From assembly GCA_964016885.1 (NCBI GenBank), contig OZ024758.1:4340001-4404000 (forward strand): a DNA stretch of 64,000 nt, in the 5' to 3' direction. The DNA comes from Eledone cirrhosa (Eukaryota). The notes under the pieces were generated by a model. That model did no database searches. It saw only the letters and a program-made list of their open reading frames with translations, and had not been told where the DNA came from. How positions within the stretch are numbered: the first letter of the stretch is position 1; each line of letters opens with the position of its first letter. A program made the translations under genes and the position numbers. Shown here in pieces: positions 1,237-58,339 of the stretch.

Positions 1237-1270
1237 TATGCGCATTTCAAAAACAAAAATCATCCAGGGA
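1237..1270 (-). ncRNA. Degenerate hammerhead relic
   Basis: Minus strand: CCCTGGATGA...GAAA-TGCGCA-TA. Extra G in the core and stem II is lost. Confidence 0.35.
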
Positions 1271-2571
1271 CGGTATTTACGTTCTCAATAGATAAAATAG
1301 GGAGACATGATATGAAGCTTAAAAAGACACTTGTGAGCAGGGTAGTGTCTAATCAACATATATATACTCTTACATATACTCCAGTCCAATAAACTGTTGA
1401 GTGCTACTTATCCGATATTTGCATTGCTTTATTCTACTACAATAAAACTCACCTCCTACATAGAGAGAGAGAGAGAGAGAGAGAGAGAGAGAGAGAGAGA
1501 GAGAGAGAGAGAGAGAGACATAAATGTATGTCTACCTATTTGTATGGGTGTACGTGTGTTTCCTCCATTACTTACAGACCCCTTTACTAAGTAGCTTCTT
1601 TGAATTTACAATTTCTGATCCTTCTATTTCAATTCTTCGATTGATCAGTGGTATGGTATGTGTTTCATGTTTTTTGTATAATACCCCTATCTTCCTAGTT
1701 GAGAAGGGGACTAGAAGATGGAAAAAACTTAACTCAACACTTAATTTTAAATCTTTAATGTTTAGTTTTTAAATCTTATTAATTTGTTTTTAATTGTAAT
1801 ACTCAACATTTGATAAGATCAATGTTACTAATACATCGAAACCGGTAATACTTTATATACATTATAAAACTCTTTTTTTTTTAAGAATTGTCCCTCATTT
1901 TTTTCAATAATGTCATTTTGACGAATCAAAGAAAGGAAAAAAGAGAAAAACAAACCCTTAAATATATTTTCCGTGCTATTTCCAATTTCATATTTTCGCT
2001 ATAACCACTGTTTTGTATTGAACCTTACTTCCCTTCTCTAATATATATATATACATACATACATATATATATAAATATATATGTATATATATATGTATGC
2101 ATATATATATTACATACATACATACATACATATGTACAGAGAGAGGAGAAAGTATATGTGTAAATTAAATTATAGAGAAGTGAAGACATATATTAAACGC
2201 ACATTGAACTTCTAAAATGCTGCATAAGTGTATATCTTAGTTGGCGCTATATGGAGTCTATTTTAAAAGACTTAATATACGTCAAGGCCGAATGATAACA
2301 TCACACTTGTGTGCTTCTGAGAATAAAATATAGATACACTTTAAAAGCAAATAATGTTATACGCTACCTGTTGAATTAACTAGTTTTAGTATGAAAATTT
2401 TATGAAAATGAAGGAATCGATTAACATACATTGACGTCTGGGAATAAGAAATAAAGAAATATAACCCGACACGTGACAGGAACACGTGACAGAAATTAAA
2501 GCATGTCATTTGTTAAAAACATCAACATAAAAACATGAATGTCAACTATTATTTTGATCCCAATATTATAC

Positions 2572-2755
2572 GGTGGATTGGCAGTATCGGTAGAGGTTCG
2601 GACGCCATGCTTTGACGCATAGAGTTACGGCCCTTGCCATTCTGAGTTCAAATCCCGCCGAGGTTAACTTTGCCTTTCATCCTTTCGGGGTCGATAAAGT
2701 ACCAGTAATGTACTGGGTAATTTCTGGCCTTGTGCCAATAGTAGAAACAATTATT
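2572..2755 (+). mobile_element. tRNA-derived SINE (major family)
   Basis: A box TGGCAGTATCGG, B box GAGTTCAAATCC, central GCCTTTCATCCTT.CGGGGTCGATAAA (Meta/MESC-like domain), tail AGAAACAATTATT. Confidence 0.9.
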
Positions 2756-2820
2756 TTGATACCAATATTGGAAAATTAACACAAATACTGACAGGCCCAT
2801 ACATACACAGACACACTCCC

Positions 2821-3041
2821 AGGTGTGTGTATGAAAAGGAATCACCCGATTTTATTTACAATTTTTACAACTGCTCTATATGTAAATATCTTTATAAAAA
2901 TTTATAAATGTTATGGAAACAAACAGAACATTATTTTCAGGCATGCATTGTACAAGTTACCATATGATTATATGACCTTTTTGGTTTTAATATATAAAAA
3001 TAGAGCCATTTGAAGTCGGATGATTCCTTTTGATACACCCT
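2821..3041. mobile_element. Tc1/mariner-like MITE
   Basis: ~30-bp imperfect TIRs: GTGTATGAAAAGGAATCACCCGA / TCGGATGATTCCTTTTGATACAC. Confidence 0.65.
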
Positions 3042-3829
3042 TTATGTGTGTGCAAAATTCCCGAGATTTATATATATATATATAATGATAAATAGTAGGC
3101 ATCGCCCCTTTTAAATATCGTATTCTAGTTTGCAAGGAAACACTATAGTTAACTCATTAAGACGTCCTCTTCTCGATGTCCACTTTAAATTGACAGGTCC
3201 TAACAGGAAAAAACAACTTATAAAAGTACAAACCATCTGAAATGTAATGAGTCAGAAGGACTTGAAAATGTTAGTGGTGCTTATATATATATATATATAT
3301 ATATATATATATATATATATATATATATATATATATAGGCAATAAAAAACAGCGTGATAAATACTATTTTAAATGTAAATGACATGCAAATGGAATGACT
3401 CATTTATCAGAGAGACATACGCCAGTTCGTGTAACAGCTATCTCTGTAACCATGTGAGGCTGCGAGACAGTGTTTCGGACATTTTATTCAACATTAGTAG
3501 GACTATCAGAAAAACCACACTTCGAGTGGTTTTTTGCAATCATATATAGCGTGCATATTGATATTATACGCAAATATATATGCATGTAGTTATGATACAT
3601 CAAATAAAATCGTAATTGACAATATACACAGAAATTTTACGAAGACTGCGTTACACCGTATTATGTAATCAGTAAAGTAATCCAGGATACATTAAAAAAA
3701 AGACGATATTATATATAAACTGCATTAGGAAAAATTAGTGAGGGAAATATATGAATGTTTATTTAAGCGATCGCTAACCGGAAAATTTTAAATAAGTGAA
3801 TCTTTAAATAAACAAAAAATATATATATA

Positions 3830-4230
3830 GATAAATCTGCAGATACTCCACCCTGATTATACCTTCAGATTTATACCTGTGATTATTGAGGCACTGGGGT
3901 ATGTTTTAACTTCCTCAATAGAAATCTTGAGAAGCTGGGCTTCACAGAAACAGAAATAACACGACTAGTTAGGAAATTACTAGTACAATCCATTAATGGG
4001 ACAGTAAAAATATGTAAAACATTCCAAACATTCTGCATCTTATAACTGCATATACTTTGTACAGATACAAAGCATATACACATCCACACATACATTAACA
4101 TCCATACTTTCACATCCATCCATACATATCTACTTAATTGATGTTTATATCCCAACGAGAGAGCTTTCTATGTTAGAAACCAACTCTCTCTCTATTAGTA
4201 AAAGTTTACAAAATTATAAAACCAGAAGAA
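3830..4230 (+). pseudogene. 3' end of an RLE-type (R4/Dong/NeSL-like) non-LTR retrotransposon
   Basis: NLQILHPDYTFRFIPVIIEALGYV / frameshift / LNRNLEKLGF...LVQSINGTVKICKTF..stop at ~4043; resembles the PVIIGALG..GT.KI C-terminus. Confidence 0.65.
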
Positions 4231-55575: not shown

Positions 55576-56486
55576 CCCACTTACTCAGGCCACTACTATT
55601 TATATGTAGTGGTCCAGCCCCTTTCTCGCCAGGGGGCGTCGTACGCTCCCACAACAATGTCAAATGATATGTGAATCTTATATATATATATCGTCTTCAG
55701 TACAAGTATGCACTCGGCATCCCACACATTTGGATGCCGAACTCGAATCAACAACAGGTCATCATTCTAAAATATATAGTTTAATATTTATAATAAAGTT
55801 ACGTTCGATTATAATCACGTTATTATAGAAGGACATGCTGGAGAGTCGGTATTAGCTGACGGAAGTAAACACCACCTGGTATTTCTAGTATAGCTTCATG
55901 ACAGTCTATTTCTCGGAGGTTATTAACATCATTTTCAGTTCTCTAAAAGATACTGCTCATCATAAACAACATCTATTGGCTTGCTACAATCACGCCGACA
56001 TTTTCACATTAATCAAAGCAACAGATATCTGAGAATTCTGCAATTTGTTACTGTTCACTTTGATTTTAGTGGTTGTTGAAGCCACAGAAGCATTCCTCTT
56101 ATGTGAACACACCAGCAACGTGTATTTCATTTAGAGTTTGTTGCCTTTCTGAACATCAATCTTCACATCAAATGTTCAATGATACTGAATGTGAGTGCTG
56201 TTAATGGAAACATTTCATAGAAAACTCTCCCAATTAGCGGTCTTTTATGTTGATCAGCAAACAGAAGCTACTTTATAATGAAGAGACTTCAGTCACTGAA
56301 TATGATATCCTAACTGTTTGTGTTTAGGACAGCAACAAATTACTGATTATCAACGGCAGAAAATGCTTTCCATTAATCAAAATTGCCCAAAGATCAGGAA
56401 AGAGAAAACCACATCAAAACTTAAGCTAAAATATTTCAGATCCTAGATGTCATCACAGACTTGTGGAGTGCATTATTATCTGGCTG

Positions 56487-56942
56487 AGGGCGGTGGATAG
56501 GCAGAATGGGTAGAGCGTCGGACAACATGCTTAGTGACATAGAGTTATGGCCCTTTACGTACTGAGTTCAAATCCGGCCGAGGTTATTGTCTTTCATCCT
56601 TACAGACTCGATAAAATAAATCGATTTAATCGACTTCCGTCCCCCAAATCTCTGGCCTTGTTCCTTAAATAGAAATCAATCAAATTTTAAAGTCGATTAA
56701 ATCGACTCCAGTATGTTACTGCTACTTTATTTTATCGACCCAGTAAGGATGAAAGGCAAAGTTAACCTCGGCAGGGCCGTAACTCGATGCTGCAAAGCAT
56801 GGCGTCCGAACCTCTACCAATACTGCGAATCCACTGCCAATTGGAGTAATAATTGTTTCTACTTTAGGCACAAGGCCAGCAAAACACCCAGTGTATTACT
56901 GGTACTTTATTTTATCGACCCCGTAAGGATGAAAGGCAAAGT
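56487..56942. mobile_element. SINE cluster (plus 56487-56680; minus 56691-56840 and 56848-56942)
   Basis: Diagnostic boxes in both orientations. Confidence 0.85.
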
Positions 56943-57955
56943 AGTAATAATACAGACTAATGACAATTTATATTATGTAATTACTATTACATCAGTCACA
57001 CACACATGTACACCAGATCCGAACACAGAGGAACCAAACTCCCACTGTCGTTTCATTATTGAGTAAAGTTCTCTCAACCCTACTCAATTTTAGCAGAATC
57101 TGTATTTCTTCAAACTCGTAGAAAGAGTTGCGACTGGCATATTGGCGAAGGAAAGTCTGTAACGTATTACTACACATATTCTTAACCAGTTTTATTCAAT
57201 CGAATCAAATTAATCGAATGCAGATTTCTCATTTCGTAAAATATATATGGAGACCGAATATATTTATTGCTATCTTCAAAGTCTTGTAATGTGAATTTGT
57301 ATATATATTTTCTTATATTTTAATATCTCATTATATTGTGTTGTATTTCGTTCCATATTTCGTGCGTGCGTGCGTGCGTGCGTGCGTGCGTGCGTGCGTG
57401 CGTGCGTGCGTGCGCGTGTGCGTGCGTGCGTGCGCGTGTGTGTGTAGAGGTTATATTTAATTTGTTGGAGATTCCAACCAGAATGGTTGCATTTTTTAAG
57501 GGTATGTCAATATTTATTTATAAAACTAACCTATATTATATTTTATCTGATGAAAGCGCACCATAGTTTCCATTTGTTAATATATATATATATATATATA
57601 TATATATGTAGGAGGTGAGTTTTATTGTAGTACAATAAAGCAATGCAGATATCGGATAAGAAGCACTCTACAGTTTGTAGGACTGGAGTATACATAATAT
57701 ATATATATATATATTGAAAGAGTGAGAAAGAGACGGCAACAGACAGATTGAGAGAGAATGAAGAATTTAAGGGTACTTATTAAAGTAGAGAAGCGGTTGG
57801 AATTCTGAGCCCCACGGAAAGCTACACTGTTTTTCACAATTGTCTGCATACTGTCTCAGCAAGTCCTTGGCTTATATATATATATATATATATATATATA
57901 TATATATATAGTGACGAAACATAAGTCAATTGCATGAACTCATAATCACTTATTT

Positions 57956-58011
57956 ACTGCTATATATATTTCGATGATAGCCATTGAATGGCTATGACCT
58001 CATCAGGCAGT
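57956..58011 (-). ncRNA. Hammerhead ribozyme motif in a TA-flanked element (~57911-58080)
   Basis: Minus strand: ACTGC-CTGATGA-GGTC-ATAGCCAT(TCA)ATGGCTAT-CATC-GAAA-TATATA-TA-GCAGT; 5-bp stem I, long stem II, palindromic stem III. Confidence 0.85.
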
Positions 58012-58307
58012 TAGTCAGTTCTTAGATATGCCAGCTCTGTGTTTATGGTGTTGATGGTATCAGAGCCTTGGGACAGACACACATATATATATATATATAT
58101 AGTAATAATAATAAATTTGAAGATTAAAATCCAAAGAGGGCTCGATAAATATATATATATATATATATATATATATCACTTTTCTAAAAAAAATTAAATC
58201 ATACTCAAAACGCCAGCACCAACAGTTTTCCAAGAGATGTCAACATGAATGGACCTGTTATTTTTCCAATTACAACCCGTCCGTTCAATCTTTCTTAGTT
58301 CTCATTT

Positions 58308-58339
58308 TCTTCTGATGAAGGACTAGACTCCGAAACGTT
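58308..58339 (+). ncRNA. Second, damaged copy of the 35179 hammerhead motif (repeat ~58275-58402)
   Basis: TCTT-CTGATGA-A-GGA(CTAGAC)TCC-GAAACGTT. The 3' strand of stem I is deleted; flanks are homologous to 35140-35290. Confidence 0.65.

Follow-up and report, generated by a model that had tools for sequence, protein, structure and literature searches.

In 64,000 nucleotides (nt) of the octopus Eledone cirrhosa (contig OZ024758.1, positions 4,340,001 to 4,404,000), a stretch which we call the window and number from its first letter, a first-pass annotation made from the sequence alone described a dense constellation of minimal hammerhead ribozyme motifs in short elements flanked by (TA)n. In this study, we interpret these motifs as predicted minimal hammerheads at the 3' ends of Penelope-like elements (PLEs). 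At least five of the families concerned, and likely all nine (A to I), are PLEs, the five being linked to open reading frames (ORFs), and the short pieces are 5'-truncated copies present at ordinary genome density. We give this reading a probability of about 0.88.

Reading frames upstream of the hammerheads

In families A, C, D, E and F, the hammerhead is preceded, on its own strand, by the end of a GIY-YIG ORF; the distance between the two is family-specific, and no long TA run intervenes. This was seen at nine loci of family A besides the window (248-328 nt), 15 of family C (mostly 387-408 nt), 16 of family D (436-585 nt), four of family E (862-1452 nt) and 12 of family F (1128-1403 nt). The counts refer to distinct loci, re-fetched duplicates having been removed and low-identity matches to the peptides of other families dropped; since those for C to F include the source locus of the query peptide, and a query from the upstream untranslated region (UTR) served to retrieve the D and F loci, they are links and not frequencies. 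Reverse transcriptase (RT) and endonuclease (EN) are both present in family A within the window and in D and F in longer copies; for C and E the EN end alone was recovered from longer copies. Apparent links across long TA runs (family F in loci L176, L185 and L199, family B in L187) were rejected as joining different elements, and so was an inverted neighbour in L183/L190.

Within the window, the reading frame itself is found in family A. A composite insertion in (TA)n at 6713-11186 consists of a 5'-truncated copy on the reverse strand and an adjoining, inverted and shorter 5'-truncated copy on the forward strand, with an extra tail of ~55 nt at the right end only. Its arms (6713-8315 and 9529-11131) form an inverted repeat of 1603 nt at 99.9% identity, the exception in a repeat search of the window that was otherwise swamped by microsatellites. 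The open, 5'-truncated frame of 766 codons (7226-9526, reverse strand) comprises an RT, a CX4CxxC linker and a GIY-YIG endonuclease with CCHH, and the inverted copy (9529-11131, forward strand) retains ORF residues 405-766 plus the 3' end. The frame has 382 homologs, the top one being an Octopus vulgaris protein at 68%; its match to RVT_1 is weak (E 1.6e-4, under the curated cutoff), and a full-length homolog, P0096, has Pfam GIY-YIG. The hammerhead motif at 6926-6963 (reverse strand) recurs as a mirror copy at 10881-10918 (forward strand), ~265 nt past the ORF end. PLE insertions have as their standard form a truncated copy beside an inverted truncated one, with a tail on one side (Craig et al. 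2021, PMC8557442; here and below, published sources are drawn on in part and statements about them refer to those parts). The motifs at 6926 and 10881 belong to opposite ends of a single 4.5-kb PLE insertion, whose ORF had been overlooked. Family A is the youngest-looking family; its hammerhead (10860-10945, forward strand) may have an additional, distal stem I beyond an internal loop.

The other four ORF-linked families are represented in the window by short pieces. Families C (19389-19574, reverse strand; hammerhead 19448-19483 with a U3-A8 core and a CGTACG palindrome) and F (57911-58078, reverse strand; hammerhead 57956-58011 with a TATATA palindrome and a 5-bp stem I) are 5'-truncated 3' ends of Hydra-type PLEs. 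According to translations compared with the published description, both have a CxCX5C linker, no CCHH, CxxC and CxH motifs flanking conserved E and N, and (TA)n targets. Together with the C-terminal GIY-YIG and the 3' hammerhead, this makes them alike to the Hydra clade as described in PMC8557442, a likeness by description and not from a tree. Family D is a 5'-truncated 3' end of a Neptune/Nematis-type PLE (35134-35291, forward strand; hammerhead 35179-35214); in its second copy (58177-58410, forward strand) the hammerhead is decayed and the 3' strand of stem I deleted. Family E spans 43560-43737 (reverse strand) and joins a 3' end (43560-43697) to a short inverted copy; its hammerhead at 43630-43665 has a U3-A8 core and a CCGG palindrome. 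The inverted copy forms a hairpin at 43662-43736; this was considered as a microRNA (miRNA) and rejected, as it is the junction of the inverted copies. Families A, D and E have a CX2-5CxxC linker and CCHH, the D linker carrying Arg for one Cys in the copy read, and by motif features alone they resemble Neptune/Nematis PLEs, which have a linker finger, a CCHH-type GIY-YIG, microsatellite targets and inverted 5'-truncated copies. Family A differs from these in having a hammerhead with a non-palindromic stem III.

The genome was searched with every family except A and G, with at most 30 loci retrieved per search. At first look these searches gave at least 495 to at least 2630 candidates per family, both figures being lower bounds. 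Window copies are 90-97% identical to their closest relatives, and several are damaged. The 3' ends are fixed beside a microsatellite in two classes; the position of the 5' end differs greatly among copies, and many copies form head-to-head pairs. From core to microsatellite, family B measures 102-115 nt in 20 of 32 copies and 246-263 nt in the other 12, and family C 86-92 nt in 19 of 31 and 214-229 nt in eight; family F has a single class (95-100 nt in 18 of 21). An optional 3' tail of ~55-145 nt, as compared to 30-40 nt in the literature, is found in A, B, C, E and G, inverted copies in A, B, C, E, F, H and I, and ragged 5' ends in B, C, D and E. With their 3' ends fixed at (TA)n, their 5' ends variable and both inverted pairs and optional tails present, the short pieces between TA runs are PLE ends truncated on the 5' side.

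Alternatively, these pieces could be mobile units themselves, either monomeric retrozymes without long terminal repeats (non-LTR retrozymes) or similar to short interspersed elements (SINEs), moving via small linear or circular RNAs. Family F lends this idea some substance, since with a flank-containing query all 29 other retrieved loci begin at one identical base, and even with a core-only query, free of that bias, the break point of 11 of 21 copies lies 71-73 nt before the core, that of the others 15 to 819 nt before it. The look of fixed length arose because the first query selected for TA flanks; the flank-free query revealed longer copies, and F as a fixed-length SINE was dropped. The shared start, at which the window copy also breaks, is an internal CATATG of the parent element matching the TA target and would fit microhomology with it. 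Head-to-tail arrays of other hammerhead families likewise favour independent units: locus L038 (C1:177000001-177010000) has at least seven near-identical units of 310 nt ending in (TA)n, and L064 (C3:99000001-99010000) about six units of ~480 nt with a variable TA spacer. Tandem arrays of non-coding monomers below 1 kb, as expected of retrozymes, are found only at these two loci, which appear retrozyme-like and would permit dimer cleavage; the window families are solo or inverted truncations. Moreover, copies of F, C, D and E run continuously into ORFs, the 5' ends of B to E are ragged, and inverted pairs and tails are signatures of PLE insertion. We therefore consider independent short units improbable.

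Controls, structure and genome density

All ten sites of the first-pass annotation hold the sequences it described. A descriptor of the minimal type I hammerhead (core, stem II of at least 3 bp, self-complementary helix III, NUH and stem I of at least 2 bp) detects seven loci in the window, with core starts at 6961, 19481, 43662 and 58006 on the reverse strand and at 10883, 35183 and 1810 on the forward strand, the last absent from the earlier list. Dinucleotide shuffles of the window (three sets of 100) give a mean of 0.14-0.22 matches and a maximum of three, and the reversed window sequence gives none. As the descriptor was composed post hoc, with the motifs already seen, the independent test is a genome sample, in which 57 matches were found against a shuffle mean of 1.5. 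The predicted excess over shuffled sequence is thus borne out at both scales. Four listed sites fail the descriptor: 12449 has U.U as its first stem II pair, at 58312, a copy of the 35183 family, stem I lacks its 3' strand, and the two sites correctly described as relics, 1237 and 45750, are damaged members of families that have intact cores elsewhere in the genome. The window contains nine unrelated families, where at least six with unlike stems in one (TA)n niche had been proposed. Among the 150 of 188 matches listed by an Rfam scan of the window there is no hammerhead family; those listed are microsatellite-driven and miRNA-like and all below the gathering score.

The reading of the motifs as chance matches in AT-rich, low-complexity DNA has virtually no probability left. 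The core is short, ~1.5 false matches are expected per 790 kb and a few singleton matches in the sample look spurious. Yet the shuffle controls in window and sample refute this reading, and so does the count of exact palindromes, found in 13 of 25 genome matches against none in eight shuffles with a descriptor that did not require a palindrome; in addition, the families searched are high-copy repeats.

Segments of at most 300 nt between (TA)n runs hold seven of the nine sites outside the big insertion, as compared to 16% of random positions (binomial 8e-5); two of these seven segments are shortened by the element's own TA run. The placement in short (TA)n-flanked elements thus stands for these sites and fails for 6926 and 10881, the arms of the 4.5-kb ORF-bearing insertion. 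That several motifs are followed by AATAAA is not upheld, as this signal occurs within 60 nt downstream of merely two of the seven intact motifs, plus the 45750 relic.

A core of CUGANGA or UUGANAA with GAAA, NUH and stems I and II is present at seven window loci; family B has one deviation, and the second copy of D as well as G and H are damaged in the window. A palindromic helix III, claimed for every motif, is found in B to I and is lacking in A (GATT in the window, GAAC in most other copies). By free-energy folding, single motifs form stem II in most cases and the full hammerhead fold never, and cofolding of two copies pairs the palindromes of C, D, F and I and not those of A, B and E, which is weak evidence either way. 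In the alignment of 34 motifs of a superfamily related to G, changes on both sides occur in five of six stem II pairs, in one of three stem III pairs and in none of stem I; in slid controls, pairing drops to 35-62%. The fourth position of stem II in this alignment (columns 21 and 50) consists of unpaired pyrimidines (C.C in 21, C.T in 9 and T.C in 1 of 34 rows), with covarying neighbours. The same mismatch is found in unrelated long-stem families with palindromes of 6 nt (B, F, G and H of the window), and it may represent a conserved internal loop or a tertiary contact.

The genome sample comprises 79 stretches of 10 kb (789.8 kb in total), evenly spaced and chosen blind to content; it covers contigs C2 to C4 over their first 53-70% only, and small contigs were left out. 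Its 57 matches correspond to 72/Mb (bootstrap 43-105), or 57/Mb (38-80) with arrays collapsed; a stricter descriptor gives 16/Mb (6-28). For a genome of 3.0 Gb, these densities extrapolate to ~210,000, 165,000 and 50,000 motifs, respectively. Matches track the density of TA runs (rho 0.47), and the loci retrieved altogether form 20 sequence clusters present at two or more loci, some of which are subfamilies. PLE protein fragments were found in 13 of the 79 stretches. An additional group of PLEs, separate from those of the window, occurs at loci L082, L200, L199 and L232, where its long RT/GIY-YIG frames stay open over 595-660 aa.

Could the window be a special cluster, selected for a host function? 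Its seven matches (109/Mb) exceed the 72/Mb of the sample, and two adjoining 10-kb stretches have none. In contrast, resampled stretches of 64 kb reach seven matches with P=0.26, and the window copies are ordinary members of their families, several of them damaged, so that we regard a selected cluster as very unlikely. The window is typical of its genome, and the density that appeared special to it is genome-wide.

Family B, the smaller families and other repeats

Family B is present in the window as a fragment (12322-12554, forward strand), in which an inverted tail (12322-12401) is joined to a 5'-truncated 3' end (12399-12554). Its hammerhead (12445-12502, forward strand) has a TGATCA palindrome and a U.U where G10.1-C11.1 is usual. 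Twelve loci, picked from 30 for long common upstream sequence, were extended to 10 kb. Direct hammerhead pairs 2826-2923 nt apart were found in six of the twelve, and these six complete units are 96.8-97.9% identical and have distinct downstream flanks. All six are non-coding between successive hammerheads: the longest stop-free stretch is 112-149 aa, blastx against 126 PLE peptides gave no match at E<1, and upstream walking revealed no ORF at any locus retrieved. Each complete unit is preceded by a partial tandem copy with a different truncation point, and some also by an inverted copy. Family B is likely a young non-autonomous PLE with a 2.9-kb non-coding unit that extends from hammerhead to hammerhead, its non-autonomy following from the PLE-style insertion of a non-coding unit. 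It would borrow the enzyme of another PLE family; no autonomous partner was found among the loci retrieved. The proposal that the motifs mark PLE ends or retrozyme-like units accordingly holds as PLE ends for the five ORF-linked families, while the motif at 12445 belongs to a long non-coding unit. We think it somewhat better than an even bet that the genome carries ~100,000 PLE hammerheads in at least 20 clusters, among the densest animal ribozyme loads reported, together with family B as a protein-less Penelope parasite of 2.9 kb bounded by hammerheads.

Three further families complete the set. Family G is a decayed copy at 1194-1357 (reverse strand) with a TGCGCA palindrome, which includes the 1237 relic; its intact cores are found elsewhere. 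The family H copy (45618-45767, reverse strand) is truncated inside stem II, and the 3' half of the hammerhead remains as the 45750 relic; elsewhere in the family the core is complete, stem II is long and the palindrome reads CGCGCG. Family I (1714-2040, forward strand), overlooked before, has a hammerhead at 1808-1849 with a U3-A8 core and a CCGG palindrome.

Several points weigh against the assignment of all nine families to PLEs with active ribozymes at ordinary density. No ORF link was found for H or I, at loci of just 700-800 nt, and for G there is a single suggestive locus (L200), where a Hydra-like endonuclease precedes a longer copy. Family A is atypical in its 2-bp proximal stem I and its stem III without a true palindrome, and B in its U.U pair, so that either may not cleave. 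Concerning stem covariation, the rows of the alignment were chosen by a pairing descriptor, which makes the percentage paired circular, and they represent few subfamilies and few independent events; the number of pairs with double changes is not significant as compared to shuffles (64 of 500), so that the covariation predicted for the stems is supported by the individual stem II pairs and not by their count. With the stricter descriptor, the window has three matches where ~1 is expected, and a mild local enrichment is possible. Finally, beyond the sampled loci, family B may have a member that carries an ORF.

The window also holds other repeats. A family of ~140 nt, TA-flanked and with frequent inverted ends, has five copies in the window (11870-12020, 18454-18585, 43990-44126, 24534-24647 and 5475-5601) and 41 BLAST pieces in the 790-kb sample; it has no hammerhead match and may be the 3' end of a PLE without hammerheads, for instance a Naiad. 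A second TA-flanked family (43021-43245 and 60596-60835) has an inverted hairpin structure and no hammerhead match. An abundant, partly tandem repeat of ~190 nt (30340-31030, 22529-23140, 2570-2760, 20670-20865, 36294-36484, 46452-46637 and others) looks like a tRNA-derived octopus SINE. The frame at 26738-27463 (reverse strand), interrupted by a poly(A)/microsatellite stretch, ends in three C2H2 zinc fingers and is probably the 3' end of a long interspersed element (LINE).

Relation to known elements and proposed mechanism

That the motifs are PLE-type minimal type I hammerheads, as first suggested, agrees with the genome-wide survey of Cervera and de la Pena 2014 (PMC4209133), which describes solo minimal hammerheads with many families per genome, opposite-strand pairs, a U3-A8 core variant and a palindromic helix III. 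Like these metazoan PLE hammerheads, the motifs studied here have a type I minimal core with a short stem I and a palindromic helix III, the U3-A8 variant, an extra base after A9 in some families, and an arrangement as unrelated, mostly solo families with opposite-strand pairs 100-700 bp apart. The survey counted ~2,000+1,300 in Schistosoma mansoni, 4,000 in the coelacanth and 9,000 in Xenopus tropicalis, unlike the 50,000-210,000 extrapolated here with different descriptors. In its supplement, the molluscs Lottia and Crassostrea are present and octopus is absent from two files. The far larger genome of the axolotl has up to 120,000 hammerheads (PMC7229834), and 235 matches were given for the giant squid (PMC6962438).

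For cephalopods, Craig et al. 2021 (PMC8557442) describe hammerheads as universal in the Hydra clade, and their supplement includes Hydra-1_Obim from Octopus bimaculoides with a (TA)n preference as well as Naiads from four cephalopod species plus O. minor. As compared to Hydra-1_Obim, to which they are matched by description only, families C and F have at least hundreds of copies each, and F has a 3' UTR of 1.3 kb. An O. vulgaris annotation (PMC13282606) contains 31 recently active PLE families and 893 recently active unclassified SINE families, and in the part drawn on ribozymes are unmentioned. The novelty claimed for this lineage was overstated, since minimal PLE hammerheads, solo copies and (TA)n targeting are all covered by the papers of 2014 and 2021, and an octopus PLE of the Hydra clade is among the published elements. 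We found nothing on the abundance of PLE hammerheads in octopus and no multi-kb hammerhead-bearing non-autonomous animal PLE, in a literature search that did not extend to subscription papers, some supplements and Repbase. The kind of object is already known; its scale and family B are the parts not found in print.

Family B and the L038 and L064 arrays resemble the non-LTR retrozymes (PMC7229834; bioRxiv 10.64898/2026.07.22.740005), which are non-coding, carry type I hammerheads and were proposed to be derived from and mobilised by PLEs. Retrozyme monomers measure ~300 nt (51-972 bp, in a search with a period of up to 1000 bp) and form multi-unit arrays. Family B differs in its 2.9 kb and in forming PLE-style partial tandems that come with tails and inverted copies, and the short pieces of the window differ in being truncations and not monomers. 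Closer in architecture are non-autonomous Chlamys PLEs such as MRC1 (PMC8557442), non-coding elements with pseudo-LTRs and head-to-tail insertions, features shared by family B; MRC1 is algal and its clade mostly lacks hammerheads, whereas family B is an animal element and bears them.

We propose a mechanism in four steps. The GIY-YIG endonuclease would nick (TA)n, in line with the observed TA flanks and with PLE biochemistry: the anole PLE cuts AT-rich DNA, and its reverse transcription has two internal start sites, by which the tail is defined (PMC11167929). Reverse transcription would then begin inside the RNA at two sites ~90-115 or 165-260 nt beyond the hammerhead core, in agreement with the two classes of 3' ends. 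In most events it likely halts after 150-300 nt, in many cases at a match between the RNA and the TA target, and it would sometimes lay down an inverted second copy; variable 5' ends, the break hotspot and inverted pairs are observed. Almost all stubs retain the hammerhead, as its distance from the 3' end is ~100 nt. In tandem transcripts, two hammerheads would pair via the palindromic stem III and cut, possibly assisted by the element's protein. This follows the dimer model summarised in PMC6765202 and the report that minimal hammerheads show weak cleavage as dimers and none as monomers (PMC4209133); the anole hammerhead cleaves only with protein (PMC11167929). Solo stubs would likely be inert. 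Several PLE families appear to target (TA)n in this genome, and most of their insertion events appear to abort early.

Many short TA-flanked repeats that octopus annotations keep as unclassified and SINE-like may be 3' stubs of PLEs. Since PLE hammerheads are dispensable for insertion in vitro (PMC11167929), their role is an open question, for which nine families with covarying stems provide a natural library. As a candidate for a large non-autonomous hammerhead PLE, family B bears on the proposed origin of retrozymes from PLEs. If confirmed, it would stand between full PLEs and retrozymes in size and architecture and would be a natural test of whether a hammerhead plus a 3' end suffices for mobilisation in trans.

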